A stretch of 64,000 bases of DNA. It comes from Amphiscolops sp. MND2022. Its lineage: Eukaryota. Below, one piece after another: positions 614 to 40,551 of this stretch. Numbering within the stretch: position 1 is the first letter of the stretch; the number at the start of each line of letters is the position of its first letter. The position numbers and the translations under genes are program-made. A model generated the notes under the pieces. The model was not told where the DNA came from, did not search any database, and saw only the letters and a program-made list of their open reading frames with translations. The DNA lies in NCBI GenBank assembly GCA_964187785.1, contig OZ076409.1:77254001-77318000 (forward strand). The letters run 5' to 3'.

Positions 614-625
614 TGGCGCAGTCAG
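614..625 (+). promoter_or_regulatory. Primer binding site, probably tRNA-Ser
   Basis: TGGCGCAGTCAG directly after the LTR, complementary to a tRNA 3' end ...CUGACUGCG-CCA as in invertebrate tRNA-Ser. The tRNA identity is inferred. Confidence 0.75.
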
Positions 626-684
626 TGTCAGTATAACTGACATTTACCACAAATATTCGTGATCAGCCCATCAATTACCAAAGA

Positions 685-3600: not shown

Positions 3601-6277
3601 CCACTTCAACCAATCACACGACGCGACTCGGATTAGTGAATCGAAACATTCCAAAACGCGTGAACAAACTGCCATTGCGTGCCTTAATCGACCGCCAGAA
3701 AGTTGCATCAATTCTATCGCAAATTCGAACAATTCAACTATGGACGCTAGAACCATAGACAATCTTGAAGCCGCAGACTCGTCTGCAGAAACCAGACAAC
3801 TGATACCCCGATGGAGAGACATAGTAAAACCGGGCATTTACAGACAATCCGGTGGCCCTTGGAAGAAATACCACGAGCCAAAATTTCTCCGGAACGAACG
3901 GAAAATAATAGAAGAGCGCCCACAATTAGCCATACAAAACTTACCGGGACAACAACAACAACAACCGCAAGGATTTCAGCCACAACAACGGCTAAAAGAA
4001 CAATGGACCGTTGACCCATTCTGGGAGCTAGATCGCCCACAGCGACCACAAGAGCAACCCGGGACATCATCTCCGGTCACATTGTAGGCCCCAATGGAAG
4101 AAGGCGAAATCGGATCAGACACCGATCAGGACCCGTCCGTCCTAGAAGTTCCGGCCATCAACTGGGCCAAATACGTGGGCGTCAAAAGCGTCCAGTACAT
4201 AAAGATGGGTCACGCTCCCAGAGTGGACGCTGAGGAACAAAACAATTGGGACCTAGGGAACGCCGTCAGAGAAACGGAAAAGAATTTCTCCACAGATCTC
4301 CAATTACTTATGTCGGAGACCACAAATGACCCTAGCCTCTTCAAAACGCTGGTATGTTTGGAACGCCAGCAACACGACAACATGCCCGAGGAATACACCA
4401 TGTACAAGAAAAAGCTCTCCACCAGATACGGATTGGTATTCTTCGAAGAACCTACGGAACACAATAATTAGCCTCCTTCACAAGGGACATCCCGCCATTA
4501 ACAAGATGTCGATGGCAGCAAGACACTTCTGGTGGCGAAAATTGACGGAAGCTATCCGGAAAAATTGCGACGGCTGTGTACCAAGCAAAATGTCCGGTAA
4601 GAGCTTTAAACCTAACATTCCTAGTAAGGAAGTAAGTCAATTACCAACGGTAAATAAACCGAACGAAGAAATCCAAATGGATTTCACCGGCCCCATAAGC
4701 GAAAAGAACCAAAAATTCTACATTTTACTTTCAATGGACCGATTTAGCAAATGGCCCGCAGCCAGCTTATGTAAAACCACGGACGGACAAACGGCGGTAG
4801 ATTTTTAGAACAGTACATAAATCTGAACGTCATCCCGAAAACCATTAGAACGGATAAAGCTACCGCGTTCACGGGCCGTACATTTAGAGACTTTTGCAAA
4901 ACTCACCAGATAAAATTAATATACGGGACACCGTATATCCATACACCGACAGGATTGGTTGAACGCGGCGTAAGAACATTGAAAGAAACACTACTAACCA
5001 ATATCAAGGCCGGAGAGAAATTCGGTAAAGCTTTAGATATAGCTCTGGGAATCATGCGGAAAACACCCCATACGAGACTAAAGAAGTCCGCATTTGAGCT
5101 ACACTAAGGACGCGAACCGAACACGGAAATAAACAATATGTTAAACCTAGACGCACTAAAGTCTATTACAAAAAGTTGTATTTCAGCAAAACCAGACACC
5201 TTACAGGTGTACACATTCAGCGGAGCTGGCGGTGCCTCTGACCAGCTACCGATGAAGCAGAAGAAAGGAGAAAAAAGAGTCAGTAAATATCCGTTCCTTT
5301 TCTTTGAAAAGAAAATAAATAAACCGAAGTTCGAAAGTGCATATTCCGATAAAAAACAGATAGCCATATTGGGCACCAAACATACAATAACAACGTCAGA
5401 TAATAAAATCTTGCACAGAGAACATATTAGTAAACCCATTTCTGAAATTGTACAGGAAAACAACACCAATCGGGGCACCGGACCACGAGGACCAGATGGC
5501 CGCTTTACCAAATCACCGAGGATAGTCAATGTCCCTGACTCAGACAGTGACCATGGAGAAGCCTCACCGGTAGTGACCGCCACAGCAACTACAACATCTG
5601 GAGAATACACAACACCGCCTCCAAAACACAGCACAATCGGCAGAGGACGACCAAAGCTAGTCAGGAACCGCCAAAATTCTGGCTCTCCGGGAGAAACTCA
5701 TACCAACCCGGACCAACAATCAAACATTGGACCGTTAACAGTAGTAACGGAGAACATGACGGACGCGGAAATAGACCGCGTCATTGAGGATGCCAGAAGG
5801 GCAAACACAGAGCTACACCTCAAAGACAATAACGGTAAGGTATTTCAAAATAACTACCAATCCCCCAAAGGAGGGGAAGAAGACAATGTAGAAAATAGTT
5901 ATACTGAACAAGACACCTCAGAACTAGAATTACTTAGCAATCTCAGCTCAAGTACCGAAATTGAACAAGAAACAAAAGAACATAATCTACGTAGATCGAA
6001 ACGCTTGACAAAAACCAACCCAATAATCAGGCTTAATAATCCAGTACCATCTGATTATAGGAAACACCGTCAAAAGACTGAATGGCCGGGAAAACACACC
6101 GGACACCGAGGACAATATGGACAACAACTGACCCAGCAAACTAAATGGACCGCTCCGGAAGAACATCCTGACAACCGGACCACAAAAGAAGGAAGTACAC
6201 GGAACACTGTGAACAACAACAACAGCTTTGGACGGAAAACCGCCTCAACAGTAGAAAACACACTCCCCATTGGCTAA
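685..6277 (+). pseudogene. gag-pol polyprotein, broken by frameshifts and stops
   Basis: Twin knuckle CNRCG..HECPAKGKKCAKCGKLGHYAKCC; protease FIVDTGS; RT KFDLDYAYGQ, FYGL, AWLDD; RNase H TTDAS, ELELLAVVW, TDH; integrase HKGHP..HFWW..C, MDF..MDRFSKW, RTD, GLVER; long C-terminal tail with LRRSKR. ORF pieces 685-1146, 990-1493, 1375-1884, 1841-3313, 3740-4471, 4326-4808, 5138-6277. Confidence 0.95.
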
Positions 6278-6303
6278 GCTACTTCCAATCAAAGAGGGGG
6301 GAA

Positions 6304-6498
6304 TGTGGCATAGCTGAATAAGCTAGAGGACAAACTTTATACTTTAGACACTATTATTCTTATTGTTATTTAATTAGTCTGAAGTACCTGCCTATACTGT
6401 ATCATCTTTATCATACTAAAGTTCGTTTAGTAACAATAGCTACGAGATAAAATACAGTCTTGAAAGAAAGTAAATTCTAATATCATAAAGTTACAACA
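6304..6498 (+). repeat. 3' LTR of the Mag-like Gypsy
   Basis: Direct repeat of 419-613, preceded by PPT AAAGAGGGGGGAA. Confidence 0.97.
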
Positions 6499-8249
6499 TA
6501 CAATTTTAGCTTGTTTAAAACGTGAATTTCTGCTATTTTGGACAATGATATCAAAAATTTTTGGTAATTTTTTTACCTGAAGTGTCCAAACAGTTGTAGA
6601 GGCAACCCTCTAAGGGTATACATTCATATAATATTCTCTTACTCGTGAAATATTTTTATTCAAGAACAAAGTGTGCTTTCGTGTTTCGTGTTGGGGGGGA
6701 TTCGCATCAAGGTGTACCTGGGGGGGGGGAATTGAACACATGGTCCAATACATTGAAGGAAAAGGAAAACTTATAGAAATGTTGTTCGCTGGACTTGGAA
6801 AACCAAAGCGTTACTCACCAAATGAAAACCTTTCTGATTCAGTTCGATCATTAGGAAAGTTTCTCCGCCCTCGAAATCTACCTTTTCTTAAGTGGCGCGC
6901 CTTGGTGGGTTTTTCTTTCGTTCGATATTCATTACCAGTTATCATTGATTTTGGTGCGATTGAGTACACTTGTAACATTCAGTCGCCAGTTGCATTATAA
7001 TTAGAGTTTAACAACGGGAGCTTTTCGGAGGTCGCCATGCAAGCATTTGGACGAAGGACGAATGATAACCATAATCGAAGCTTCAACAACGATACTTTTC
7101 AACAAAATCGCTTCCCTTCAATTTCATAAGCGAGTTGGGTGCAATGAAAGACCCACTTCATTGCTACGGTCGAAAGAATTCGGCGGCGAAACGAAAGTCA
7201 AGCAGTTAAAGCGCTTTTAGTTTGTTTGAATGGGCCTTCGCATGAGTTCCTTGTAGCATCCCAGGAGCTGAAAACGCATGTAGGGATTCTTCTTGCACAT
7301 ATCTTATGAGCACTCTTTTTAAAAAAATGAATCGAGTCACGGAGGTCATTGGAAACGATAGAGCGGCGCGCAACGAGTTCAAGGCTGTGGTTCAGAACGA
7401 AAGCGAATTCTTGCGGGATGTTGCACATCGCATTCGAAGTGTCGGAGTGCTAGTCTTCGCTCAGTGCTATCTCTGGTTTCGCAAAATGCTGCAACATCAT
7501 AAAAGTGTCTGGTGGTTCTAAAAATTCAGCCATCAAAAAGGTTTTTAAGGACGACATCATTTCGAAAACCAACATCAACCGATGACATTATTTTGTGCTA
7601 CATAGGGATGACAAATAAGATTTTAGGGAACACATTGATTTTGGCGACTAAATGTGTCACTAATTCTTTGGACATTCGTCAACACTTCAACCATGACTGT
7701 TGTTGTTGGGCTCTTAAATTTTTTGAGCTTTTTATAGGCCTTTGTGTACAAAAACAATTGTCCTTAGTTATTAAAGTTCGAGATGACGAGAATTCTAAAA
7801 GATATCCAAAATGCCTTTGAGACCCAACTTTTACCCTAATATTGCGGCAGAAGTAGGCTGTAGACTAGCCGGTTACGGCATAAGTCGGTCCATCGCTTCA
7901 GGCTCAAAATAGCAAAAGTCAAAGCATCAAGAATTCTCTTCCGGAACAATTTCCCAGCACCGAAAAATCGAAAGGAAATTTTGGCTGGGGGAGCATTTTT
8001 TTCAAAGCTGCGCCTCTTTAGTAAAACGCAGTTTACTTCGGTTAAATCGTCAAAAAATTAGATATAGCGCAAAATTTTGAACTTCCGCCTTCTGCTTAGT
8101 GAAACGCGATTAACTTCAGATATAATGTAGAAAATTCGGATTTAGCGCAATATTTTGTTCATATCAGAAACTGCAACTAGTATAGTTCAGATGCTTAGGC
8201 AAAATGGTACCATTGGCCCCCTGAAGTTCTGTAGAACTATATGTAGAAC

Positions 8250-10521
8250 TGTCACAGGCTGCCGCCTGTGACGGTAATCTCTACCAAATCACATTTGAAG
8301 GAGACAACACTAACCCACCCCCAGGAGTGCTGCCCATTTAAAGACTGACAAGGACAAAAAGTAATGTAAACGACTTGTATTTTGTTGTTATTTTTATTCC
8401 TTTGAATTTCACCACAAAAGACCCATGGTCCATACGGCCTCAGTGCAATTGATAATTTTAGTTTACAAGGCTGTATTTATTCGTTTAGTAAATCGTCCTG
8501 TGCCAGTTTTATTGTTGAAATGTTAATGAAATTTGGCAATTAGTAATTAAAATCAATGAATTAATACAATGCAATTGTATGCGGAAGAGAAAACGCGTTC
8601 AAATGAACGCTTCTTCTTGCTTATTGTACTCGCTGTACAAGCATTATAGTCCAATCAGAATGTAGTACATTAGTGTAGCTCCGTGGACAGAATGTCTGCC
8701 ACGGTGGAATTAGCGCGCGAGTGCCGCTAGTGCTGTAATTGAGTGTGGCTACGCGGACTTAAAGTCCGCTACGGTAAAGTATAATGTTAACATGAAATTA
8801 CATATTCTGGGCGCAAGTAGTATTGTAGATTAGTATTGAAAGTACATACAGGGCTCTGTAAACATTTTCTTACTTTGTCGGCTTAACTGTCAAAGCCCCT
8901 CATCCTTCTCTTTGATGCAATGACGTCATAGTGACGTAACCTAACAAAATGCTATTTTTAGATTACCATATCTATATTCAGTACTATGACCCGCAATTTT
9001 TGTGTTGTCACCTTCTCCCAACTATAAATAGGGAGGGCGCAGGACCAAAGGGACAATCTTTCAGAAACACGAATTACTAACAAGTTGCTAAATCTGACCA
9101 GTTGAATCTGATATTGTGCTTGCCTTAACCAGTTCTTTCATTTGTACTACTCGTTCTCCAATTCAATTATGCTTAAAGTGGTATTTCTTCAATGCCTTCA
9201 ACAAGAAAGCAAAAAGCTAAGGAAAGACGCTCTAGACAGTTAGACTTTATGTTTGATGTAGAAAATGTTGATGTAATGTTAGGAAGTTACTCACGGAATG
9301 ATGAGGAAAATGACCATAGTGAAAATGAAATAAATTCGGACTCAGAGTCAAGTAGACCACAACGAACCTCTAATGTAACTGGCGAAGATTTTTGGTCACA
9401 CCTCACGAACAGTAGAGAAAACATTGAGATTACTATTGAGACTACTAGAATGATAAACGAAGAAATTTCAAACCAAATGTCTAGGAAACTTAATTCGATC
9501 AATAACAGCTTAAATTCTCAGATACAAAATGCAATCACTGTTGCAAAAGCTGACACTGTGCTTCCTTTTATACAGAATGCATTAGAGATGCAGGGGAGAT
9601 CAAATTTTACCGTAGTGGACCGAGCGTCCAACGGGCTACATCCTGGCCCAAGGACAGGTAATTTCACCGTGGAGGACCAAAAGTCCAGTGGGCGTAAACG
9701 TAAACGTAATAAATAGGGAGGGCGCAGGACCAAAGGGACAATCTTTCAGAAACACGAATTACTAACAAGTTGCTAAATCTGACCAGTTGAATCTGATATT
9801 GTGCTTGCCTTAACCAGTTCTTTCATTTGTACTACTCGTTCTCCAATTCAATATTGCTTAAAGTGGTATTTCTTCAATGCCTTCAACAAGAAAGCAAAAA
9901 GCTAAGGAAAGACGCTCTAGACAGTTAGACTTTATGTTTGATGTAGAAAATGTTGATGTAATGTTAGGAAGTTACTCACGGAATGATGAGGAAAATGACC
10001 ATAGTGAAAATGAAATAAATTCGGACTCAGAGTCAAGTAGACCACAACGAACCTCTAATGTAACTGGCGAAGATTTTTGGTCATACCTCACGAACAGTAG
10101 AGAAAACATTGAGATTACTATTGAGACTACTAGAATGATAAACGGAGAAATTTCAAACCAAATGTCTAGGAAACCTAATTCGATCAATAACAGCTTAAAT
10201 TCTCAGATACAAAATGCAATCACTGTTGCAAAAGTTGACACTGTGCTTCCTTTTATACAGAATGCATTAGAGATGCAGGGGAGATCAAATTTTACCGTAG
10301 TGGACCGAGCGTCCAACGGGCTACATCCTGGCCCAAGGACAGGTAATTTCACCGTGGAGGACCAAAAGTCCAGTGGGCGTAAACGGAACTCCGAAGCAGA
10401 AAATGCCCAGAAAAGAAAACGTGGGAAAATCGTCCTAAAAGGTGTTTTACACGGGAAAATAGTAGACAAATGTCTAGAGAGGGTTCAGCCGACTCCTATA
10501 ATGGCGAACAAAATCGCGACA
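8250..10521 (+). repeat. 5' LTR (about 1587 bp plus a 685-bp internal duplication)
   Basis: Colinear with 22445-23861 joined to 25822-25989. Contains CCAAT (8651), TGACGTCA-like motifs (~8921-8938) and TATAAATA (9023-9030). Confidence 0.93.
9024..10385 (+). repeat. 685-bp-period tandem duplication inside the 5' LTR
   Basis: 9024-9700 is repeated at 9709-10385 with an 8-nt filler TAAACGTA. It gives two near-identical ORF starts MPSTRKQKAKERR (9192, 9877) and is absent from the 3' LTR. Confidence 0.95.
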
Positions 10522-11643
10522 TGGTGACAGGAGCCAACCTCACCCCCCATATGGTTCCTGAGTTTCGCACTGGACGGCCCATGCAATCCCGTGAACCCCA
10601 GCAACGTCAAACCTCTAACGCAGACGAGTCTTTGGACCATAGCCCACAGGTCCAAGAACCTGCAGGCCGAACTACCCCTACAGACCCCCTCAACCGTCTT
10701 GCTGATGTATTAGTTGGCATGAACAACCGTCCATCAGCACAAACACTGATGGTACGCCCAGTCAGCACAACTACATTGACGTTCGACTGTAAATCAGAGA
10801 AATTCAATTTTTTTGAAGATCTCTTTCACACAATGATAAAAATGCTAACTGATATGACCGAAACAATGAAAATAAACCACCCTCATTCATTATTACGCAA
10901 GAACGCGTCAAAAACTTTCCGTAACATCAATACGGCAAACAGGCAAACTTTGGAAGACCTTCTGGCAGTATTTCGTCAAAAATACGTCAATCCCGAGTCC
11001 CAGGCGACCGCAAAACACAAATGGCACAAATTGGTGTTTGATCCAAACACCCTGAAATTGTTCGACTTCCTTGAGGAATTAAACCAAGGAGCTGAAAAAG
11101 CGTTTGGCGAGAACACCCAGGCAAAGATCGACAGTCTCCTATATGCCAAACTGCCGCCCAAATTGAAACGCTCAGTCAATATGGCCAGACTTGAGAACCC
11201 CACCGACGAGGAAATAGTCACCCATTTAGAACGTGAGCTTGAACTCAACGGACTTGAGGAGGGAGATGACAGTCCAGTACCAACAATGTCCACTGCCCCT
11301 ACAGCAACACGACCGGGAACTGGCCTTCTTTCTTCGGGTATAGATCCAAACATTACTTGCAACTATTGCAAGAAGCCCGGACATGTCAAGGACGACTGCC
11401 GAAAACTCAAAAAAGGAAGAAAAACGCTGCAATGACGGGCAGGATACCAAAAAAGAATGTCCAAAATGTCCAACTTGCGACAAAACGAACCATCCGGCGG
11501 AACGATGTTGGAAAGGCGATGGATTCCACCTCAAGCCCAGAAATTTTGAACTGGAGGACACCACAGTTGCCGATACGTCCACCAGTCAAGATGATGCCAA
11601 AAATAAACAAACGCTTTCAATCTTTAAAAATCCAAAAAACTAG
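9877..11643 (+). pseudogene. gag (starts inside the LTR), frameshifted
   Basis: ORF pieces 9877-10527, 10470-11435, 11383-11643. Capsid-like TFDCKSEKFNFFEDLF region; knuckles CNYCKKPGHVKDDC and CPTCDKTNHPAERC. Confidence 0.92.
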
Positions 11644-14600
11644 ATTTGCCACGACTCCAAATAAATGAAAAACTTCGTGTCAGACAATATACAATATCTG
11701 ATCCTTCGACCATATATTACACTGAGTAATATACAACTCTTAAAGAAACTTCATCAACTGACTGGCAGCAGCAGATGAAGACTTCACCTAACTTTTCCAC
11801 CACTTCGGACCCTACGTCCAACAGACTACAAAACGATACTTCGACTATACGACTTATACCGCTCATTGATGACTATAACCCATATTACCCTGACCCTGAC
11901 CATTGTTTTGACCCATATTGGGAGGCTAATTGCTACAATCAACATCATCTATACTTTTACACCAATTATAACAAACCAGATCAGGAGGTAGAGTCGGACT
12001 CTTCCGAAGTAGATGAAGACCTGAATACCGTCCTTGGCAATGCCCGAGTTGACCCATGGCAACATGGCGCACAACTCACTAATCACACGACCCACTCTGA
12101 AGCTGACAACGATTTTCACCGTGGGGGACCACAAGTCTCCCTAGCCTCAGCAGTCGCAGCACGTTTTGTCAACACACTAGTCACCAGAACTGGCGAACCA
12201 GATTATTTACCGCTGACGACCAATCTTGGCCTCAAATACAAATGACGAATGCTCTATTTTCCGATGGATTTCGGCGAACTAACTCTAGATGGCCTTGTAG
12301 ACACGGGAGCCCTATCTAGTGCAATCCCAGAAGCTGATCTACGTAAAATCCGACTATTAGCCCCTCAGTCTATTGTCAAAGAGGGCCCAACACCCAACTT
12401 CCAAATTATGGTTGCCAATGGGCAGCTGGAGACTCCGAAGAGCACCGTCGAGCTGAAGGTTGAAGTCGGCGACATAGAATTCCACGAGATATTCATAGTA
12501 ATGGAAAAACTCACTAGTCCATTGATTGGTCTTTCGTTCCTCCAACGGAACAACACCATCCGGGACATGAGACAAAGTTTCCTGAACTTCCCTTTCTTTT
12601 CGATGCAATTGAAAACTGCCGATCACAAGTATACTAACATTATGGAACCCATCTGCATTAGAGAGGATGTAACTATCCCACCTTAGGACCGACACTCGGT
12701 CAAGCTGGCCTCAAAACTGTACGAAGGCACTACAGTTACTGGGATCCTTCAACCGAGCAACACACTTACAGATGATGGCGAGATTGCCTTCTGTGCTGCT
12801 CTAGTCACTTTGACCAATGGTCAAGTATCGGTTCACCTGAACAACTTTACCTCAAAAGAGGTACACAAGTAGCCACTTTTACTGTCCTGACACCAGAACA
12901 GATGAAATATGTCAAACCCATAGATCCGGTGAAGACATGGCACCTCTTGCAGGATAACCCTGAGAATGCTGCCTACTACGCAAGCAGCTTGATCAAATCT
13001 ACAAAACCTGAGGACTTCAAGGAAAACTACTGGTTTCCTACACCAGAGGACCCTGGGGACCCTCAGCAACACACGCCAGTCCAGAAAAGGATTTTATCCG
13101 AACTAATTAATCTCCAAGAATTCGAGAAATTCAACCCTCAGGACGACCATGAGTCGCGCCGTCAGTTCCTGTCTAATTTTGACTGGACAGAATAGAATCT
13201 ATGCTACAACCCGCTGAATTCGCTTGCATAGAGGACTTAGTTGACGAATTTCACGACATATTCGCAAGACATCGATTTGACATAGGTATGAACGAGGAGT
13301 TCAAGGTCAAATTGACACCCAAAGAGAATTCCTCAGCCTATAGTCAGAGTTTGCCTACGCCAATCAACCTCAAGGAAGACAACCTCGTGGAATTAGCATT
13401 ACTACATCGCTAGGGATAATTAAAACACACCCATTCTCCAAATACGCAAGCCCAATTTTTGCCCAAAAGAAACCTAACGGCAAACTGCGACTGCTTGTCG
13501 ATTTGCGAAAAATCAATAACCTTATTTCCGACGATTATATAAATAACAATCACCCCGTGAGTACCCTCACAGATGCAGCCCAACACCCATGGCATGGCTG
13601 GCAAGAAGCTATTCTGCAAATTGGACTGCTCGCAAGCATATCATTGCTTACAGATGGCTGACAAGAGGTCAATCGACATGCTTGCTTTCAATTTCGCCAG
13701 CAGAACCGTCGCATACAGAAGATTGGCGCAAGGACTCAGCAGAGCCTTATCGGCCTTTTCGAGTTTTATGCGTGAATATTTGGACAAGGTCATCAAAGCA
13801 GACCAATGTGCCCAATTTGTTGATGATATTGGCATCGCTGTCAATAATGCCGAACAACTTATCAACAACCTGAGGGCCACATTTCAGTGCATTCAAAATG
13901 CTGGTCTCAAACTCACGATGCATAAATGCCACTAGCACTCAAACAACCCTTACCGAACAAGCAAATAGCCCTCATGACTGACGCTAGCCTTTAGGCCGCA
14001 GGGTATGCAGTTCTCATCGAAGATGATCCCCTCGAGAAATACACATCAACAAGGAAAACTTTCGCACCAGTAGCTTATGGATCCAAGACCTTTAGTCCTT
14101 TCCAACTGAAAATGTCTATCTATGCGAAGGAATTCTTGTCACTTTTCTTTGCCTTTAAGGATTTTGGACATATCTTTTGGGGAACCCCGAAACCGGTGAT
14201 TACACTTACCGACAATAAATCCGTCACACGATTTTTTCAAACGAAAATCATTCCACCGACACTATGGAATGCATGCGACTATGTCATTCAGTTCAATTTT
14301 ACAAATGCTCATATTCCAGATAAAAACAACACCGCTGTCGACTACTTGTCCCGTCTCGAAATCTCTCCAAAAGAAAAACTAATCCTCCGAATTAGAGAAG
14401 ATATTCCATCGACACCGATTGAACTACATGTCCAATCAGCAGGAGTGTCGGAGGAGGAACAAATCTTTTATAAGGAGGATGACGATGAGACTGAAGAACA
14501 AATTTTACAACGCAAAAGGAAATCTAGGGATCCAGGAATAAGCACCCAAAATGCTCATAGAAGTTCGACAAAAATATTACTATCCTGGCATTGCAAAATT

Positions 14601-16084
14601 TGTTAAAAATGGGTTCAACAATGCGAAATTTGTATAAAAGACAGAAGAATTCCAAACTCATCCATCACACCTGAATTGCTCAATCTGCTCGAATGGGACT
14701 TAGGTCCAGAAGACGCAATGCAAATCGATTTTTTACCAAACCTACCCCCCAGCGGAGGATACGAAAACATCATTACTGCAATAGACGTGTTTTCGCATTA
14801 TCTTTTTGCTTACCCAGTTACAGACGCTTCAGCCACGAACACGGCTAATGTCATTTTTGACATAATTACGAAACAGACCTACTTGCCTGCCACCTTGATC
14901 ACTAACAAAGGAACGGCCTTTACGTCCAAACTGGTGGCCGAAATTGCTCAAATTTCGGGAATTCAAGTGAATGGCGCAACTACAAAACACCCACAAATTA
15001 TTGGTAAACTCGAACGCACACACGCTAGCCTGAAAACGAACCTAAAAAGGGCCTCAGGGGACTACCGGCGACAATGGTTTATATATTTGCCTTTAGCCGT
15101 ATTAAACTATAATACGACCTACCACGCCACCTACCACGCTGTGAACCATCCAGAATCTTTCATGGACGAATCCCATATAATATATTAGATCACAAATTGG
15201 GCCTTAATCCAAACTCGAAGGTCTTTCCAACCACAGACTTTGCTGAGGAATTTCAATGACGCACGCAAGTACTACTCGATTCCACAAAGAAAAACATCAT
15301 GCAACCCTACTTGAAATACAAGGAGTATTACGACCGAAAGGCCAAAGCAGCCCTTTTGAGACAAAACGACTATTGTTTCATATTACAACCTATCGCTGGC
15401 CACCAAGGATCAAAAATCCCGTTTTGAGAATACAGATGGACAGGACCCTATATTGTAGAAAATGTCCTACCAAACGAAAATTATATAGTCAGAAAACTGA
15501 ATTCCAACAAAACGCAAATTCTACATCGTATTATATTGCGTAAATATGAGCCGAACACCGTCCTACAAGTCATCAGACCGGAAGACATTTTGCAACCGGA
15601 TGATGAAATTATTATTCCGCAAGACAACCTCTATGTTATCACTTGGGAAACCAATTTTGGAGAATTCCCCAATTCCACTGAAAATAACACAATTCCTACG
15701 AATCGAGATGCTCAAGACACTTCTAATGATTACGTCAATGATGACAGAGCGCCAAACGAAATTTTGGCCGACGTGGACTTTAGGTCCACTGGGCCTCACG
15801 AAAATGACGCCAGAGCGCCAGTCGAGTGTTTTACCGATGTGGACCTTACGTCCACCGGGCCTCACGAAAATGATGATTTTGATTCGCTTAAAGAAACCCG
15901 CTCAGAACGTACAGACCACAGGTTTGACGATCGACAATCGTCAGGAGGGAGAGATACTATCGTGCCCGAAGTATTAGATGATCAAAATGATGATGTGATG
16001 GTAGAAAATGATAGCTCTAGGGGAGGAAAATATAATCTTCGTCCTAGACCCACCCCCAACTTTACTGACGAATACAAATACTAG
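11640..16084 (+). pseudogene. pol (PR-RT-RH-IN), decayed, with two internal deletions
   Basis: LDGLVDTGA; LDCSQAYH, LAQGL, QFVDD; MTDAS, SIYAKEFL, TDNK; WVQQCEIC, QIDF..IDVFS, GKLERTH; ends KYNLRPRPTPNFTDEYKY*. Sequence is missing after ~13932 (RT thumb/connection) and ~14527 (before integrase). Confidence 0.95.
15767..15876 (+). repeat. Two 66-bp tandem units in the integrase tail
   Basis: ADVDFRSTGPHEND / TDVDLTSTGPHEND. Confidence 0.85.
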
Positions 16085-16254
16085 TCAAATCTTTAAATTA
16101 CTGTCCTGTTCTTGAGCAATAAAAATATCTTTTAGGGACCTGACTGACTTCTAAACGGAAAACTACGATAGACTTCAGACAACAAATGGAAAAAGATGAA
16201 TAAAAAACTGAATAAATAAAGGCTGTTTATCATGTGCAAGTATGTATTAGACAA

Positions 16255-19200
16255 TTAGAGCTTAGTGGGACTCCCAATCGAATGGCTGCTTCGTTCGATT
16301 GAACCCCCTCTCGACACTGATCGGCCCTGGCGCTTGCTAGCCTTTTTGTCCCAGGACTTTTCCGGCGACTTATCAGAACTCTGAGGATCAGCGCTAACAC
16401 ACATGGTGACTTTGCGCTGTTCAGTAGATTGGGAATTTATGCAGTCTTCAATAGCAGCGCGATTGAAACGATTGATCTTGTCCCAAGGACAGTAGGTACT
16501 ACTGAGCCCAGTACCACCAAATAATTTCTCCAGGACCAGAAAATGAGCGATAGATCCATCAGAGAAAAGAGTGTTCAGTCCGCGTGCGACATTTCCCAGA
16601 TAGGACTGAATAGGAGCAACAATGTCAAACAACACACTTTTGGGTTCGTCAGTCTTGTTGGAGCCAAATCTAACAGGTGCAAATGTAAACCTGGGTTCAT
16701 CGATGCAGAGACAGCTTAGACGGAAAATCCTTGACAGATATACTCGGGACTTTAATGCAGGTTGCTTGGACACGAAGTCAATGGTATCGGCTATTAGTAA
16801 CTTAGGTTGCTGCATCTCAGGTTGAGTGCGTCTCAACTCGTCAATGATGGAAAGGTACTCTTCAATGTAGATAGTTTCCTCTTCGGGCTGGAAGACACCT
16901 CTGAATCGGAAACTAGAGAACAGGTTCTTAAAGCAATACGCAGCTTGCTCCATTGTGTCCACAAACAGGGTCTCTAGGTCGAAGGAGCCTAACCCTTTGA
17001 CGATATCTGAAGTGAATCTGGTGAGTCCAGTAGCTGCTCCGAAAAGATGTGCCACATACCCACGAGCTTGTCGACCAAATTCCTCACGATTATTGGCGAT
17101 TATTTCTTCAAGGCTCAGTTCACTATTTCTGCTTCTTTTCGCTCCTTCTCGGATTTACGCTTGCACCAAGCATCCAGTCGGGGTCATAGTATTAAGCGGG
17201 ATATAAAATCACTGACTGATAGGGATTTTGAATCTGGGATGGAAATTCGGAGAATGTCATAATATCAGGTTCGGAAGGCAGGCAACTGGATCGAATGCAC
17301 CTCTGGGCAAGTTTGTGCAGATACTGGCAGAGCTCCTTGTGGACATGAAACCCTCGATCACGCCTCGTCTTCAGGTTAAGAATGAAACTGCTGGTATCTA
17401 AAAAATACAACAATGAACTCATGAAAACAGACAATTACCACAACACACGATATACCACTTACAATCGCAGAACAATCGACAGAACAAGTCCAATCGGCAA
17501 GGAAAGAGGTCATCATAGACTATGGACAATTCCAGATTCTGTGGCTGATATTGTTATGGATTTGAACTAAACTGGACTCGAGGTCATCTTAGCCATACAA
17601 TGACATTACTCATTACCTCGTTTCGGACTCCTTGCTTTTCTTGTTGTGGGGCATGCTTGGAGAGGTGCCCTACCACCTTCGACCAATTGTCAAGCAATTC
17701 CTGACAGAGCGCACGGAGTCCACTGACATCAAGCTGGCCTGTCCTGATGGCCTAAAACAAGATACCTAAACTAAGCTCAATAGCACAAAACCTCACATGG
17801 ATAGGTACGCTCACACTCCTGGAAACGACGAGTCACTGCTTGATGAAGTGGAGTTATTTACCTTGGTTAATTCTGGAGACAACAACACCCAGTCCAGCTC
17901 TGAGCTGCCCCTGAGGGAGATGACAAGGTAGCGCAGTACGGAGAAGAAGTCTTTACGTCCGAAGACACTCTGGCTCTTCTTGTGCATCAGGGTTGACAGG
18001 GTTAGCTCTTCGAAACGAGGAGTACTCTGTACTCCACATGGACTGTAAGGGCTCTGATCAACCAATTGCACTGTCCGGGCACTACTTCCAGTACATTTAA
18101 CTAGGCGTGGCTTAGTCGAGATGGCTCCAATGATGTACCAAATTAGGCACACTCCAGCTTGGGTCTGGCCCTGTACCCGTCCAGTCCGTTTGAGGAACAC
18201 TCGGCATAATTGATCACCGTGACAGAACCTGATAAATGACAGGAGGAAAACGCCGTCAGTAGCAAATTCTACTGCGTATTCGCCTGACGAATTGATCTGA
18301 CATTCGAGGTCATCAATAAATTCACGAAACATATGGTGAAACATGACCTAAACACAAATTCGATTGATTAGCCCCCGGAAATACTACGAGTACACAGCTT
18401 AACAGAGTGCGTAAGCGGATAAGATGAAATAATTGTGATTACTTACACTAATTCTTTCCTTCCCCCAGTTGAAATCCGTAAACAGGGCTTGGTGATTGAC
18501 TATGACTCCGACGTCACTCCAAAAGCTTTTCAGAACCTCAAGGCACCGTGAGTAGGAAGGAATTTGGCCAGTACGGGCAATTGGACTCGTGCACGATTAT
18601 CGGACGAAGAAGACATGTAATCCGTCCCAGCCATGAATTCATCATGAAAGGGAAGTTTTTGGCCAATTTCAACTAACGGAGCGTCTTTAAAGTAAGGCAA
18701 CTCCAATTCCAATTGATATGGTGAGAGTAGTTTACCATCTCCACCTCGGACTTGGTGGATTTTTGACTTGGTCACTGGGTCAACTTAGTAAAGGTACTCG
18801 TACCGCCACCTTTGGTCTTTACGTAAATGTTTTTCGGAGGAATGATGGCGCAAAAGTTTCCGTGCTCCCTCGCCATAAAGGGAGATGTTGGCGTTACAGA
18901 TCTGGCAGTAGAACTTGTAAGGATTCCACCTTGGGTCCACTGGACCTGAAACGAATGTTCGGGTCCATTCTATCCCTGAAGTAAGCTTCCTTCAATATCT
19001 TGCAAGACCTTGTGATCTGCCTGCGGGTCGCTGTGCCTCGGGAACTGGAACTGATTCTTCCACCCTGATTATTAGGAAGCTTGCCTTTGTGTTTAATTGC
19101 TTCGGCCTTCAAGGAAGCAAGGGTTTGGGCATCAAGACTGTCGGCAGCTGTTAATGATGTGCCGGCCCGACGGTCCGTATAGCTGCAGGACGCACCCTCG

Positions 19201-20571
19201 GAAGCTTTCGGCGGAGCAATTATCTCATCAGTTTCTGGCCTTTCGTAAGAGTAACCAATACTGGAGAACTCATCATCGCTCTGGAGGGCTCCGCTTGTGT
19301 CACTCAGTTGACCCAGTGTCGTGCTTCTAGACCTTTGACTCTGGCCGACTTATAAAGTCGCTGGGGTAGTCATGGTGCTAGCAGAGGCTTCTAAGGTGAG
19401 TCTCGTCGTTTTTTGGATAATGCCTTCTAACATGTCTTGGGAGGCCCTCACAGTCTCGTCAGCAACAATCTTAAGAAGGCTGCTCAATTGATCCTCAGTA
19501 AACGCAATAACTGGGTGTCCTTGGGGGAAATTGAAGGGTTCATTAGTCTGGAAGTGTTCTTTGATGAGCGCCCTGCTAGTAGGAAGTAAGACTTTGACCT
19601 CTAGGAACCCCAGGAAGGCCAACAGTGGTAAACGCACTTTCAGCGTCACTAGACTCAATGTTAAGCTGTCGGGACTTCAAGTCTAAAGCCTGAGCAATCG
19701 TAGAGCCAGCTGGGTTGAAAGAAGACTCGGCATCAGTTTCAACTACAGGTTCACTACTGCTAATAGTGACAGCCCGAACGTCTTTGTGACCTGTTTCGGC
19801 ATTTGAGTCCGTGTCAGCCTCTTCATCACTCATGGTACGAAATGGAGTAGGAGCTCTTTGTTTGGCTGGAGGATGACTCCATGAAAGGATGTACTCCCTT
19901 TTCTTGGTTGTTTGTTTGTACCCTGAGTACGTTTTGTTTCCGCTTGAGAGCTGGCGCCAAGCACTGGCCCAAGAAATGAGACTTTAGGTCCAGAGGGACC
20001 TTGTTCAGTCGGGCTCAATTGGAAGCTTGTGGAGGGAATCATCACGATAGGTTCACTCTCAATCGCTTTTACAGTGTTGTTTGCCCCCACTAAAGCCTCT
20101 TGTTTCGGTAAATCTTTTTCAACGCTCTCAGTTTTGCGGGTCGAATATGCCTGGACGCTTTCTCCTGAACTACTATTTCCAGACGCAAACGGATTGACTA
20201 GGGATGGAGTGTAATCCGGAGACGGTGGTCGAGGGGTTGGTTGACAAACTGTAGGAGTAGAAGAATCGACATTTTTTTGTAGAGGAATCTTGTTCAGATG
20301 AAGCCTGTAATCCACTTCCCTCAAGGATTTCTATGGCAGTGAGTAAAACACTAGGAGAAGTAGGAGGTGAAATTGTCTGTTTGGAGGAAGAAGCTGCTTC
20401 TCCCACGGTTGTGGGACTGCTGGTCTCCACAGCCTCATCAGGGCGTTGGGTCAAACTGTTATCTCTGATGCTTTCATTGTTCATAGACGCCTGGGTCGGT
20501 TGGCCGTTTGATTCAGTTCCTAAATGGAAAGGAATAATTTCGCGCGGTTCACTTCCTGCAAATGAATCCAT
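16255..20571 (-). pseudogene. Antisense intron-containing gene inside the Gypsy element: S/T/P-rich N-terminus, C2H2-type zinc finger, hAT-transposase-like body
   Basis: Minus-strand exons 20571-18447, 18347-17862, 17751-17463, 17397-16255. GT-AG introns 18446-18348, 17861-17752, 17462-17398 have matching phases (0, 0, 1). FYCQICNANISLYGEGARKLLRHHSSEKH at ~18913-18827. Several stops and frameshifts. Confidence 0.8.
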
Positions 20572-21725
20572 CTCGCCGCTTTTTAAAATCTTCCGGAAGT
20601 AGAGTTCAACTCATTCAATTTAGTTTGAAACATTTCACGACGGAGGAAGTACAATTAGTCGAACCTAAACCCTGATCAAGTTTAGTTAGACAAAATGAAA
20701 GAACCAACCTGATGTTATTTCCATGACGGAAAACATAATTGTTGTCCCGAACGTCGTTTGAAAATGTTGGGCTGAAGAATGTGCTCAAGGGGTTGACTCT
20801 GTCCTTTTGAAGGCTCGTGATAATCTGTGACTGATCAGTGTGTCTGCTCAGCTGTGTGGTTCTCAGAAATAAAAATCCCTTGATGGGTAGAATTACAAGT
20901 TGAGGTGACAATCAACTCGAGTGTAGAGAATGAAAAGGGGCGGAAGAATACTGGATCACAGACACAGAACATACATTATAATATAATAACATTACTTACA
21001 CTTCCTGACCTCACTAGACTTAGAGACAATGTACACGAAGTACAAAACGCAAGACGGTTAATTACTTACCTGGCGAATGAACGTCGTGGCCTATTAAGTA
21101 GTTCTTTTATCTACAATTATGTACAACTTATCACATGTACCCTTAGTGTTATTATTTAATCAAGATCTGTTTCATCATGGATTGAAACTGCCAGTGAAAT
21201 TCATGTCTTTATTTCATCTTAGGGATTAGTTCATTTCGTAAATTAGTGTTAGTTTAACTGAAATAGCCATTCTCTTGGCTTTCGTCAATTTTTTTTGTTC
21301 TTTTCTCTGCGACACCTCATTGGTTACTTCAGTTGATGTAGCCGTGCGGACTGAAGGTCTTTGATGGTGAATTTATTTACCGGCAGTTAACTTGAGTTAA
21401 CACTTATTACACCTATTCACTGCCATCAAGTAGTTATTTAAACAGCTAGAAAGTCCTTCAAGAACCTTTTAACATCAAGTTTACCTTAGTTATCATTCCG
21501 GGAAATTGGGTAAATTCTACATTTAAGGAATGTTTGGTAAAGATTTAGGAAAGATCAGAAACTGTTTCCCCGCTGGGGAACTCCCGCGAAAACGGGAAGA
21601 CTGGCAGCCCAAGTATCTCGAGGAGAAATCATTCATCACAGTTTGAAAAGTGTAAAACAGTCGAGTAAAGAAACCTCAAAATTGCGAAGAAAGTCTTTCT
21701 TAGGAGATTTCAAAACAAAATGTAA

Positions 21726-22536
21726 ATGAATCTACCGTTCTATCTAGACGATCTCTCAGCGCTTCCAGTCAGTCCTAGTCACTACTCTTCTGATGAAGAA
21801 ATGGATGTGGACACCCAGTTAGTCACTGCTACCAAAGACGACTCCGAAGATAGCGATATAGGAATGATCGCGTGTTACCGGCAAGACCAATTCAGCCAGA
21901 TGGACTAGTCGCAGGACGCAAAATGACTGTGGAGATACCAAAAAGTGCTGGGGGAAACTTACCCCGATTGTCCCTAGGAGAATTTTGGTAGCATGATGCA
22001 ATTGGTGGACAGCCAGGCTGATCCGCTGGATATGGGAGCGGGGCCAAGTACAACTACCCAAAGCAGTAGTCCGCCCATAAGGTATTGTGGTAAACTAACG
22101 CCATTAGTTGACACGCCCCTATCTCCTCCACCACACGAGCGTGGTCCAAGTCACAGCAATTGTGACTACACAACGACAATGCAGACTCGGATGCCGCTCC
22201 GACCGAATTCTCATATACAAGCACTGAGTGTCCGCAAAGCGTCACAATGTGGACAGCCAAATCAAGCTCAATATGGTGACTGCATAGTTTGCGGAAGGAG
22301 TTATGAACAAATAAAGGAAACTGCTGCTTGGATACTTAGAATCTTCTACTTATCGTGGAGAAGGTTACAACGATCAACAAAGAAGACGTAATGCTTATTT
22401 AGCTGGAATGGACCAAGGGACAGTACTCTTTATCCCTAGGGGAGTGTCGCACGCTGCCGCCTGTGACTGTAACCTCTACCAAATCACATTGGAAGGAGAC
22501 AACTCTAACCCACCCCCAGGAGTGCTCCCCATTTAA
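21726..22536 (+). pseudogene. Sense accessory ORF of unknown function running across the PPT into the 3' LTR
   Basis: Pieces 21726-21908 and 21993-22391, then a shifted frame GYLESSTYRGEGYNDQQRRRNAYLAGMDQGTVLFIPRGVSHAAACDCNLYQITLEGDNSNPPPGVLPI* ending at 22536. Includes CIVCGRSY. Confidence 0.7.
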
Positions 22537-25500
22537 AGACTGACAAGGACAAAAAGTAATGTAAACTACATGTATTTTGTTGTTATTTTTATTACTTTGA
22601 ATTTCACCATAAAAGACCCATGGTCCATACGGCCTCAGTGCAATAAATAATTTTAGTTTACAAGGCTGTATTTAATCGTTTAGTAAATCGTCCTGTGCCT
22701 GTTTTATTGTTGAAATGTTAATGCAATTTGGCAATTAGTATGTAAAATCAATGAATTAATACAATGCAATTGTATGCGGAAGAGGAAACGCGTTCAAATG
22801 AACGTTTCTTCTAGCTTATTGTATTCGCTGTACAAGTAATAAAGTCCAATCAGAATGTAGTACATTAGTGTAGTTCCGTGGAGAGAATGTCTGCCACGGT
22901 GGAACTAGCGTGCGAGTGCCGCTAGTGCTGTAATTGAGTGTGGCTACGCGAACTTAAAATCCGCTACAGTGAAGTATTATGTTAACATGAAATTACATAT
23001 TCTGGACGCATGTAGTATTGTAGATTAGTATTGAAAGTACATACAGGGCACTGTAAACGTTTTCCTACTTTGTCGGCCTAACCGCCAAAGCCCCCATCCT
23101 TCTCTTTGATGCAATGACGTCATAGTGACGTACCCTAACATGATGCTTTTTTTAGTTTACCATTTCTATATTTAGTAACATGACCCGCAATTTTTGTGTT
23201 GTCACCTCCTGCCAACTATAAATAGGGAGGGCGCAGCACCAAAGGGACAATCTTTTAGAAACACGAATTGCAAACAAGTTGCTAAATCTGACCAGTTGAA
23301 TCTGATATTGTGCTTGTCTTACCCAGTTCTTTCATTTGTACTACTCGTTCTCCAATTCAATATTGCTTATAGTGGTATTTCTTCAATGCCTTCTACAAGA
23401 AAGCAAAAAGCTAAGGAAAGACGCTCTAGACAGTTAGACATTATGTCTGATGGAGAAAATGTTGATGTAAGGTTAGGAAATTACTCAAGGAATGATGAGA
23501 AAAACGACCATAGTGAAAATGAAATAAATTTGGACTCAGAGTCAAGTAGACCACAACGAACCTCTAATGTAACTGGCGAAGACTTTAGGTCACTACTCAC
23601 GAACAGTAGAGAAAACAGTGAGATTACTATTGGTACTACTAGAATGATAAACGAAGAAATTTCCAACCAAATGTCTAGGAGACTCAATGAGATGAAAACC
23701 AGCTTAAAATCTCAGATACAAAATGCAATCACTGTTGCAATAGCTGACACTGTGCTTCCTTCTATACAGAATGCATTAGAGATGCAGGGGAGATCAAATT
23801 TAACCGTAGTGGACCGAGCGTCCAACGGGCTACATCCTGGCCCAAGGACAGCAATTGTCACTGTCATGGACATTTTGGTTAGGAAAATCACTGTTTAGAT
23901 GGTCCTCATTCTGTCCATTTCTCTGGTTGCCTTTTGCGTTCATGTTTCGCTGAACTTCGAAAATTGGTTCCGGTCTCTCAGACGGAACGTCACATCCCTT
24001 TCTGGTCCAGTGTCTTGATCCGGCCATAATGACATTTTGAATCTGTGGAAGTACTTGAGTACTTATTGCATCACTTATGGCTTTTTGTATTTGGACACTC
24101 ACAGAGTTCATCATCTCGTCCATCTCTCGTGAAATACGAGAATTTAATTCACTCGACAGTCTATAAATCTCAGCACTAGAGTTAGCCGTAGCTGAATTGC
24201 GGTCAAACTCGGCATTAATACCGGCGTTGGTAGTTCTCTGCTTTCTACCCACATTCTCATCTCCATTTTCGGGTTCATTACTAGCGAAACTTCTGGATCT
24301 CCTAGGCAAATTGCTATTTAAACTGCCTTCCCTCTCTCTCGTGTCAAAGTGGTTCTCACCTAACATGATATCTAAGTTCTCGATATCAGACAACATTTCG
24401 AGTCCTCTCGACTTTCTAGCTTTCTTTTGCTTTCTAGTGGTAGGCATTGAAACGAACCTGGTCAAATATTAAATTATTTAACACCAGGAAACAGTCTTTT
24501 GTAGAAAGTTTGTAAGAGAAGGCTATTTTTACAAACTGAGCTTGAGGAGCAAAACAAAGATTGTGTCTGCTCAAGGAAGTAGCTCCTATATATACTTCCT
24601 TGGGCGGGATATTTAGGATACAAATACTCAGAAAATGTGACAATAACATTCCGAAAGCGCCTGATATACATATTTGTGTGGACATCTAAGTGCCGCCGAA
24701 ATGTGGTTGGAAAGGTCACGCGACCGTTCAAATTCTTTCACTCACAACACAAGCAAACATTTGAAAGGTGCGAGACACATCAAACAGGGTATCAAGCCAC
24801 AAGCATCTGAGGAATGTCAACAATTCCGTGTCGGCACGTGCCTACACAAGTGGACTGTTCTGGTAAATAACTAATACAACTGCATATTACTGCACATGTC
24901 TATTATACCTAATACTGCCACAACTCATACAAATCAACTGGACAAATCAGCTAAATCAGTCTATAAGACTGTCATCTAAAACTACAACATGAATCGTTCT
25001 TAATCGCGTCGAATAATTTAGAGAGGCAGATATTAGTTTCTGGCATGAACACAGCAGCACATGACATTAAAAGCATAAGGGTACATACATCACTCTAATT
25101 CGACACTCGAATAGCCGGCTTCAAAAGTAGCCGAAACCGGCCACTATCCATCTGGTCTTACTAACAGAAAATAATAATCCGGCAAATGGCCTTATTCGAC
25201 CAATTATTAAAATAAAGTGTGAAACTGCAAAAATGGGTATTTAATCAACATGAAAGGCACAATTACCTAATTATCAATCAAGTACATGAATGTTAGGCAA
25301 TTTATAACTCGCAAGCGCAAGACGCTCGGAACCGGCCATTTGACCAAAGTACTAGACGATAAAAGCAGAATTACGTCACGTGGCCTAAACCGTCCAATTG
25401 GTGAATACAATAATAGCACCGCCACATGAGCAAACATGATTGGTCAGCATAACGAGCTCAAGTGACGTTTCCGAAATTGGAGTTACGTTCACTTGAACTC

Positions 25501-25989
25501 CTCTCCTTTACGCTGCATAGCTGTTTCAATTGCTTCAATTGTTTACATTGTTATACTGCATTTTCAAATTTGATAATCACAAGCATCTCATCTTAATTTC
25601 TCAATTGTTGGCCTTAACAGACTAATACTAATACAAATATGTACAAAACGAAAAAATGAATAACTTCAATGAATGCAACACATAAAATGATGAAACGTAA
25701 AAGTTTAGGGTTTTTGATTACTTTCCTCTAGTAGATGGGTAAGGTGCCGACAGCTGTCTCTTGTCCCTCCGCCGTTGTCGTGATTTTTGTACCGTCACAG
25801 GCGGCAGCCTGCGACATTCACCGTGGAGGACCAAAGGTTTCATTGGGCGACAACGAAACTCCGAAGCAGCAGAAAATGCCCAGAAAACGTGGGAAAATCG
25901 TCCTAAAAGGTGTTTTACACAGGAAAATAGTAGACAAATGTCTAGAGAGGGTTCAGCCGACTCTTATAATGGCGAACAAAATCGCGACA
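22445..25989 (+). repeat. 3' LTR (about 1585 bp), interrupted by a sister-family solo LTR
   Basis: Matches the 5' LTR and contains the gag N-terminal ORF from ATG 23386. It resumes at ~25817 and ends CGCGACA at 25989, followed by the TSD. Confidence 0.93.
23862..25816 (-). mobile_element. Solo LTR (1955 bp) of a related Gypsy family
   Basis: On the minus strand it starts TGTCGCAGGCTGCCGCCTGTGACGG and ends CCATGACA. TSD GTCAC/TTCAC, TATA near 24590. ORF MPTTRKQKKARKSR (ATG 24447) is homologous to MPSTRKQKAKERRSR and open to the LTR end. Confidence 0.9.
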
Positions 25990-38398: not shown

Positions 38399-40551
38399 TG
38401 TCGGAGTACTCGTTACTCGGTCCGGGAACATCAATATGTTCCGGGATCGAAACATCTTGCAAATTTCCGTCTCTAGAGCTAAGATAGTTAGGCTCTAGTG
38501 GTGACGAATTAGACAAACTATCTACTTTCGCCAATAAGTTCTCTATCAATTTAAGGATTTCCCTCTGACAGTGTTCAGTGTCTCTTAAACGCTTAGACAC
38601 TTTGTTCTCAACTTTACTGGATATATCTTCGAAATCTTGCTCTGAGATACAATTGTTTTCGTCAGTCTGTCGACTAGACTCTTCAGCTAACTCATGACCT
38701 TCAGGCGGATCTCTCCTCAATTTTTTTCTGAGATCTTTCTGGCATATTGATGGAAACTTTTAGGCTATCAAGATTTAAATTAATCAATAAGTTCTAACAA
38801 GTCGAGAAATTCTGACGACCTTTTAGCAATTATTTCAGAATAGACAAGTTCGCTCAATCAGGATGAACAACAAAATGTAAACAATTCGAAGTTAATGAAA
38901 TAACAAACAAGGTTGGGACAAGTTTCAAAAGGTGATCACTAATGATTTCAAAGATGCGGTTATTTCAAAAATAAAACTGCTTCAAGTGAGTCTCATCAAA
39001 ACAAAATTCAACAACTAACAATCTTAACCAGCGTCAGGTATATGTATACTTTCCGCTAGGCACGCGGGATAAATCCCGAGCGTGAACTCACACCTCGTTC
39101 AACTCGGCTTCCTTCCAAAGCGATAAAAATCCGAATTAGGAAAGCTTCCTCAGGGTTCGGCATTCGGCTTCGTGTCACTTTAAGAAAAGTGGGAATTCAT
39201 TTCCTGCCGAATTCCTGATTTCGCATTCCTTCTCCTTCATCTTCCGCGAATTTGTGACGCCGAGTTCAAAGTTGGCAATGAAAGTTCATAGACCTAGCAA
39301 CTGACGCGTGAAAAGTAACAATTTTACAACGAAACAAAATGGGAATCAATCACAAATATCACAAAATATGAAATAAGTTCTTTTTCCAAGTTAAATATTA
39401 ATTGAATACTGCTCAGAATCAACATTTTCACACTGATTAATTATCTTGGTCGCACTTCTGATAAATCGTTCTAGTTTAAGTCGACCGAACGGTTGACGAG
39501 AGTGTTGACTCAAAAGTGTTTGAACAAATTTCACTATTAGAAGAACGTTTAACAAAACAGTATATTAGAATTGTTAAAGCGTGACAAGGGAATGGTAATA
39601 CCGCATTGATTAGTGTAAATAGCGTACATCTTCAACTCAAACGGTTCCATCATTTCTGTGGAAGGGTAAACTCTAAATTATCGGGGAGGTGACTGGGGTA
39701 TCGTTCTGGATTCAAACAAATGTATTTCACACTTGCTATTTCATAAATAGTATTACGACACATTTCATCACATTTCATCGTTTTAACTTCTTACGAAGTC
39801 AGTTAGATCCGTATAATTATTGTTCATTGAACATTGATCGTAATGAATCTTTATGACAGCAATATAAGCAACCGCGAATTAATTTCGAAATTGTTCGGTT
39901 GGACGGTTGCCTGGGTGGTCGACTTCAAATTAGTGTTATTAAGTCTGTTCATAGCATCAATTTCACATCATTATGTAATTATTCCATCGTTTACATGCAT
40001 ATTCTATCGTATTTCAGCTTCTTTTAAGTTGGGATTGTATTACAGTTAGCACAGAATGTTGATCATCTAAATCATTTTATTAATTATTCAGTCGAGCGAC
40101 TGGGCGGTAGTCCCAGTTTTTGGTCGACTGCAGAGTTGACTAAGATGACTACACAGCTAACGCTGTTTATTTGCGCTAATCGCTGATTGGTTGATTTATG
40201 AGAGAATGAAAATCGTTTCGTTTAGCTCCGCTGTTTTTGGGACAGTAAGCTAGTCGGTGTGCTGGTTGGATTAATTTCACTCATCGCACCGGTCATTTTA
40301 CTGTAAACAAATTGTCTATATAGCACTTAATATTATTTAAGTATTTACATATTGATGTATTTTAGGTACTGCACTGGGATCAATTTTTTAATATTATTTA
40401 AAAAACTATTTAGTTGTTCTCTATGTTAGTGGTTGTTTGTTGGTTTAGTTCTTTCGGGTTCTCATGCTGATGTTCCGGTCATCTTCTCCACTTTCTTCCT
40501 CAGGCGTTCTCAACTGATCTATTTCCTCACAGTACCGCTGGGGCTGTGACA
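38399..40551 (-). mobile_element. Solo LTR (2153 bp) of a third long-LTR family
   Basis: Minus strand TGTCACAG...CTCCGACA with perfect TSD GCAGT (38394-38398, 40552-40556). A coiled-coil-like ORF from ATG 38745 (MPERSQKK, frameshift in an A-run, then RRDPPEG...NEYSD) is open to the LTR end. Confidence 0.88.

Follow-up and report, generated by a model that had tools for sequence, protein, structure and literature searches.

The locus

The window, a stretch of 64,000 nucleotides from the genome of Amphiscolops sp. MND2022 (contig OZ076409.1, positions 77,254,001 to 77,318,000), contains a Ty3/gypsy element at positions 8250-25989, bounded by the 5-bp target site duplication (TSD) AGAAC at 8245-8249 and 25990-25994. 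Its features are listed in Table 1.

Table 1. Features of the element and of the two solo LTRs, in positions of the window
Feature	Position	Strand	Remarks
5′ LTR	8250..10521	+	TGTCAC..GCGACA, 2272 bp, 93% to 3′ LTR, flanked by TSD
Sense ORF3 tail, last 29 codons, at U3 end	8252..8341	+	dN/dS, conserved stop
TATA-like box, predicted promoter	9023..9031	+	ATG-poor leader behind it
Gag head copy 1, LTR-borne	9192..9716	+	174 codons then stop, shortened by duplication
Gag head copy 2, LTR-borne	9877..10520	+	frame break near 10405-10420
Last LTR base and 12-nt PBS	10521..10533	+	tRNA-Leu complement; M-V-T-G in gag frame
Remainder of gag: linker, capsid, zinc knuckles	10521..11642	+	Pfam DUF1759, zf-CCHC, Retrotrans_gag; broken near 3′ end
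pol, broken: protease, RT, RNase H, integrase	11643..16084	+	gypsy order, Pfam
Antisense accessory ORF remnants	16255..20610	-	
Sense ORF3 remnant	21978..22536	+	through purine tract 22438-22444 into 3′ LTR
3′ LTR	22445..25989 (22445-23861 and 25817-25989)	+	TATA 23217, ATG 23386, solo LTR inserted
Solo LTR, sister family B	23862..25816	-	TSD GTCAC/TTCAC; 195-codon open head, ATG 24447 to ..VHD
Solo LTR, MPERS-type family	38399..40551	-	TSD ACTGC; terminal frame 120 codons open to ..YSD

The 5′ LTR includes a 685-bp tandem duplication (9024-9703 and 9709-10388, 99% identical), without which it measures 1587 bp. Because of this duplication the ATGs at 9192 and 9877 are copies of one start. The intact TATA precedes the first, whose frame stops at 9716; the frame of the second runs for 216 aa (..KIATW) to a stop at 10527, and its ATG, 644 nt from the junction of LTR and primer binding site (PBS), is out of the gag frame. 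In the 3′ LTR a solo LTR splits the corresponding frame, which is out of phase there too. The window element is a dead, rearranged member of its family.

A sequence-only reading of the window had proposed that gag starts at ATG 9877 and is translated through the LTR end and the PBS. Its particulars were borne out: the TATA at 9023, the ATGs at 9192, 9877 and 23386, the frame ..EQNRD-MVTG, and an ATG made of the final LTR A and the TG of the PBS. So was its remark that both solo LTRs, which are genuine, end in open frames at ..D (VHD and YSD), the start codon of the MPERS-type copy lying in another frame than its terminal open frame. The continuous gag frame itself is interrupted by a frameshift in the window copy and holds at the level of the family; because it is absent from the window, other copies were tested.

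Several further features of the window were noted. At the gag stop there is an A-AAA-AAC heptamer (11634-11640; also in L080) with pol overlapping in another frame, an arrangement that suggests -1 frameshifting. A weak dUTPase-like match (E 0.017) lies between protease and RT. The start of the LTR (8250-8275) is mostly self-complementary and common to families A and B, the U3 regions of which are otherwise unlike. Elsewhere the window holds another gypsy element, the LTRs of which are short (197 bp) and 99% identical, and BEL/Pao-like remnants (by ORF content), within 418-6499 and 32500-37800, and a degraded MGNKR-type element from 60043 (60043-61400) with a PBS-like TGGTGACAG at 60594.

The LTR boundary, the primer binding site and the class of element

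At the junction (10515-10531) the LTR ends in CGCGACA and is followed by TGGTGACAGG, read ..EQNRD-MVTG; the final A of the LTR (10521) and the TG of the PBS form an ATG in the gag frame. The PBS matches 12 nt, CCA included, of the 3′ end of a host tRNA-Leu. The pattern of this tRNA end has 886 matches in the genome against none for a control, and ARAGORN called Leu at three of nine loci. Most of the 100 pattern matches listed fall in a long tandem array of tRNA-Leu-type genes or gene ends (G000:C8:35587799-35637281 and beyond).

The position of the boundary matters, for one could argue that it has been mis-called, or that the open frame is a by-product of an RNA or DNA constraint on U5, with Gag made from the junction ATG. 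TSDs bound the window element and both solo LTRs. For ten junctions from other families the 20 kb downstream were searched for a copy of the LTR: in nine a copy with 94-100% identity ends at the junction A, eight exactly at the A of the ATG and one overshooting by 4 nt, and the tenth has no LTR in range. TSDs and LTR pairs together fix the boundary, against a mis-call; the constraint on U5 is taken up below with the evidence on selection.

The element shows the hallmarks of Ty3/gypsy: PR-RT-RH-IN order (Pfam), direct LTRs with TG..CA ends and a 5-bp TSD, within the 4-6 bp typical of the class. Integrase does not lie upstream of RT, as it does in Ty1/copia, and a Pfam scan found no env family, the mark of Errantivirus, on ORF3 or on the antisense ORFs scanned. 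In family A the 3′ LTR is preceded by the purine tract AGGGGAG. Family B has no purine run there; its 3′ LTRs are preceded by a pyrimidine-rich stretch (L032-L060, L072, L074, L076).

The gag frame runs through the LTR end and the PBS

The best 30 DNA matches to the window element constitute the family-A sample, which includes the window copy and one near-duplicate pair. The distance from head ATG to junction is divisible by three in 18 of these, in one by way of compensating shifts, giving 17 of 30 copies in phase; the LTR frame is thus in register with gag at the level of this family, as the sequence-only reading requires. The commonest distances are 639 (11 copies) and 642 (four). Seven copies are free of stops in the LTR part and four are open to the end of gag. 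In family B, sampled through a protein search and so biased, a PBS is present at five of 30 loci, all five in frame.

An unbiased sample was obtained by selecting loci solely on the 15-mer formed by ACA and the PBS, which has 7,449 exact matches in the genome (control, 1), and taking the first 30 junctions on contig 1. Over the 150 codons upstream, stops number 67 in the gag frame versus 545 and 306 in the other two; the median open frame is 132 codons versus 3.5 and 11; and the frame is open for at least 150 codons at 12, 0 and 0 junctions, respectively. Four degenerate or unrelated-looking loci were left in these counts. More widely, at 22 of 90 loci an open head (103-215 codons) leads into at least 330 further codons, and the 120 homologues among the matches listed cover 85-100% of a 570-aa query, in most cases with the head included. 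In this gypsy clade, then, the gag frame starts 103-215 codons inside the 5′ LTR. The proposed dual coding of att site and PBS is supported, the gag frame being open across both at the level of the family. At one locus (L103:945-3014; LTRs 99.7-100% identical) an LTR-coded head is fused in frame to protease-RT, without a capsid.

Selection on the LTR-borne codons

Absence of purifying selection on these codons had been named as fatal to the sequence-only reading; dN/dS across families returned the opposite. For all pairs of the 30 family-A copies, which are related, so that pooled pair counts are not independent, dN/dS is 0.12, 0.13 and 0.51 in successive thirds of the head and 0.19 in the capsid region, against controls of 0.75-0.80 in every frame of U3 and 1.1-1.2 in shifted frames of the head. 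Five disjoint family-A pairs give 0.18 (CI 0.14-0.24) for the head. Head codons 1-107, which lie outside the search query, give 0.08 (CI 0.05-0.13, with dS near saturation), and the last third is weakly constrained (0.48, CI 0.34-0.69). Among other families dN/dS in the head is 0.09-0.23 in six of eight pairs, two being saturated; the capsids stand at 0-0.03, and the constraint on the head is weaker than that on the capsid in these families.

Counts of sites agree. Informative sites in the head are distributed 55/51/128 over codon positions 1/2/3 (p 3e-11) versus 95/88/92 in U3, and singletons in the head are evenly spread (110/118/99). Indels common to at least three copies number two in the head versus 31 in U3 plus leader. 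At family level the LTR-borne Gag codons are under purifying selection.

These data also bear on the supposed constraint on U5. The frameshift in the window copy would suit it, as would the lower synonymous divergence in the last 70 LTR codons, but the excess at third positions is confined to the gag frame, low dN coincides with high dS, and RNA folding around the junction does not stand out (z -1.7, matched by 12 of 200 shuffles). Together with the fixed boundary, this leaves the by-product or mis-called boundary hardly credible and, indeed, largely refuted.

The opposite end of the LTR is also coding. The ORF3 tail, which makes up the first 28-29 codons of U3, is under purifying selection, with a dN/dS of 0.23 versus 1.32 and 0.96 in the other frames, and its stop falls at codon 29-30 in 41 of 42 LTRs. 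In two fetched copies (L079, L082) sense ORF3 is 326 aa long and reads through the purine tract into U3. Both LTR ends are therefore coding: one for the Gag head, the other for the ORF3 tail. ORF3 has no Pfam match and carries a C-x2-C motif. Between pol and the 3′ LTR there are antisense ORFs in 10 of 10 elements of the boundary test and in six of six of another set; those of the window and of L080, L074 and L119-L133 are apparently multi-exon, with a zinc-finger-like motif.

Structure of the head and the capsid

AlphaFold models of Gag from two unrelated families share one arrangement: a disordered basic start, one long helix, a disordered linker that contains the junction, and the capsid. 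The helix spans residues 75-135 of 588 (pLDDT ~90) in one and 42-84 of 501 in the other. The sequence-only reading had described about 200 codons of basic and coiled-coil-like sequence; the length (103-215 codons) and the basic start agree with this, but only one helix of ~60 residues is structured. Its hydrophobic period is 3.8-3.9 in the MPS and TTR families and 3.3-3.8 in others, and the former value suggests a right-handed rather than a heptad bundle. From composition and shape, the head is predicted to combine an RNA-binding basic start with a self-associating helix.

Eight family groups fall into six head types that are mutually unalignable (HH probability ≤31%), whereas their capsids align with 98-100% probability. 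A search for a common origin of the heads by HH alignment (alignments of 1-4 sequences) failed beyond three related families, and the head returned no usable match from Pfam or the ESM Atlas. The top Foldseek matches of the capsid are the PNMA2 and dArc1 capsids, with probabilities of 0.99-1.0 and non-significant E values of 0.006-0.02. By Pfam, DUF1759 scores above and zf-CCHC just below the cut-off in Gag.

Leader, start codon and translation

A TATA-like box precedes the head ATG by ~160-195 nt in family A (21 matches in 30 copies) and by 100-150 nt in family B (30 of 30 loci). The last 150 nt of the family-A leader contain five ATG versus 80 CAT over 30 copies, and 13-87 ATG occur per 50 nt farther upstream. 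The family-B leader has four ATG versus 10 CAT, so that the CAT control is low too; one family has short upstream ATGs and no clear TATA. The ATG-poor leader fits scanning to the head ATG. Mosaic breakpoints, which in family A lie ~70 nt before the TATA, were considered as markers of R and rejected, for a single switch in U3 suffices to explain them. A search for the poly(A) site found no AATAAA or ATTAAA conserved across families A and B.

We propose that the RNA starts ~30 nt after the TATA box and that the head ATG is the first AUG to be scanned, in which case ribosomes would make a single Gag with the LTR-coded head ahead of the capsid. The LTR end and the PBS would then lie in a disordered linker tolerant of the imposed [DNHY]-M-V-T-G, and minus-strand strong-stop DNA would reach ~700-800 nt in families A and B.

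It is possible to imagine two products instead, as for Ty1 p22 or retroviral glyco-Gag: a long Gag from the head ATG, and a head-less capsid protein from the junction ATG or from an internal transcript. A complete capsid does lie downstream of the junction, and all 20 of the Gags aligned carry M-V-T-G, although these loci were chosen on that motif. By the Kozak rule the junction ATG stands in the better context, with G at +4 in every case and commonly a purine at -3, the position that is occupied by a pyrimidine at the head ATG of families A and B. Conservation of the junction ATG is, however, uninformative on initiation because it is forced by the CA of the att site and the TGG of the PBS; in each of 30 cases one of D, N, H and Y precedes this Met. 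In addition, the head contains 2-12 in-frame Met codons (the start included) and 0-15 out-of-frame ATGs, so that scanning would rarely reach the junction. Two products are thus unlikely. The evidence of frame, selection and leader makes it highly probable that ribosomes read the head and the rest of Gag as one protein, the junction ATG being an internal Met imposed by att and PBS.

The head as a probable exchangeable cassette

In reverse transcription U5 is the first part to be copied, and what lies beyond the PBS the last. Because the two are copied at opposite ends of the process, a single template switch, wherever it occurs, creates an edge at the PBS. Such boundaries are present. For groups 1 and 2 of the family-A LTRs the best change point falls 14 nt upstream of the junction, 80 diagnostic columns lying on its upstream side and five on its downstream side (2dLL 78). 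Of the other group pairs two break at -14 and -17 and the three that involve group 3 at +184; there are six pairs in all, from small samples and with groups defined on LTR sequence. L097 and L101 are 6-46% divergent over -650..0, against 0-4% in most flanking bins, and L016, L018 and L021 join the distal U3 of one group to the promoter, leader and head of another.

Divergence between LTR groups extends to the 3′ accessory block but spares gag-pol: groups 1 and 2 are 5-19% apart in gag-pol and at least 28-35% apart in the antisense region. Faster evolution of accessory genes than of pol may account for the divergence of the block. By this pattern the head follows its LTR and the 3′ accessory block in descent, and not the capsid that it is joined to; as to mechanism, the sharp drop in divergence at the PBS probably reflects exchange of the cassette during reverse transcription.

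Joint inheritance with the accessory block would also be expected if the head served chiefly as an accessory protein in its own right, expressed from solo and 3′ LTRs in the manner of MMTV sag or of a self-restriction factor, with the Gag fusion secondary. In keeping with this idea, 25 of the 30 family-B matches are LTRs that lack a PBS; their frame continues into the flank for a median of nine codons. Yet a conserved stop at the end of the LTR is absent from every family, and all six head types, unrelated as they are, remain continuous with the gag frame. The even spread of singletons in the head, moreover, is what selection on replicating elements, as opposed to inserted copies, would produce. 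We consider a mainly separate protein very unlikely.

Translation of the head as part of Gag allows a broader, and rather doubtful, conjecture: that the clade moved its PBS into gag, that every recombination re-pairs a capsid with a new head still tied to promoter, ORF3 and antisense regulator, and that free heads from thousands of solo and 3′ LTRs can poison particle assembly in the matching families. The model for such poisoning is the truncated Gag of Ty1, which blocks assembly (PMC8458377), although that fragment is C-terminal. If the conjecture is true, free LTR heads would be a built-in, family-specific control of copy number and a source of new host genes.

Two warnings for annotation follow from an LTR-coded head: short ORFs in the solo LTRs of this genome are Gag fragments and not host genes, and ORF calls made on the internal region alone lose up to a third of Gag. 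In evolutionary terms, the evolution of Gag would be tied to the geometry of reverse transcription, which offers a testable reason for the unlike N-termini of metaviral Gags.

Comparison with known systems

Coding sequence that runs into U3 is familiar from HIV nef and MMTV sag, and ORF3 resembles these. They are, however, accessory genes at the U3 side and do not cross U5, att and PBS as Gag does here. A narrow full-text phrase search, outside Repbase, GyDB and subscription journals, found no report of a gypsy Gag domain inside an LTR.

With Ty3, the canonical Metaviridae and the vertebrate metaviral Gags the clade shares the order Gag-PR-(dUTPase-like)-RT-RH-IN, an Arc/PNMA-like capsid, CCHC knuckles, TG..CA ends and a 5-bp TSD. 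According to PMC11011659, metaviral Gags have N-terminal domains that are unlike each other and of varying length, and a coiled coil is present at the N-terminus of ARC. The PBS segment of Ty3 lies next to the 5′ UTR and outside gag (PMC4974528). In contrast to the clade studied here, the accessible sections of these two papers do not place the N-terminal domain inside the LTR. Plant gypsy elements of the Retand (Tat) group likewise have a long region between pol and 3′ LTR with antisense ORFs (PMC11963269). A gag start in the LTR is not described in the accessible part of that account, and TRP28 had no match in the element.

Ty1 offers a small-scale precedent. The premise of the sequence-only reading, that gag normally begins downstream of the PBS, has a textbook exception here: in Ty1 of Saccharomyces cerevisiae the PBS lies inside the GAG ORF (PMC4974528), as it does in this gypsy clade. 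Transcription of Ty1 starts at LTR nt 238 (10.1101/176248) and its 5′ UTR is 53 nt long (PMC3592414); with the PBS at nt 94-104, by our arithmetic, ~13 codons precede it. Ty1 belongs to the copia superfamily, is primed by tRNA-iMet and has a short LTR. In the present clade the LTR measures 1.2-2.2 kb where determined, the codons before the PBS number 103-215 and include a predicted folded helix, six head types all preserve the frame, and coding sequence occupies the U3 end as well. At family level the gag ATG lies inside the 5′ LTR and the PBS inside gag: by its sequence organization the clade is Ty3/gypsy with a Ty1-like layout taken to an extreme. In Ty1 the exception amounts to ~13 codons; in this gypsy clade, for which a single genome holds at least 7,449 junctions, it extends to an entire Gag domain.
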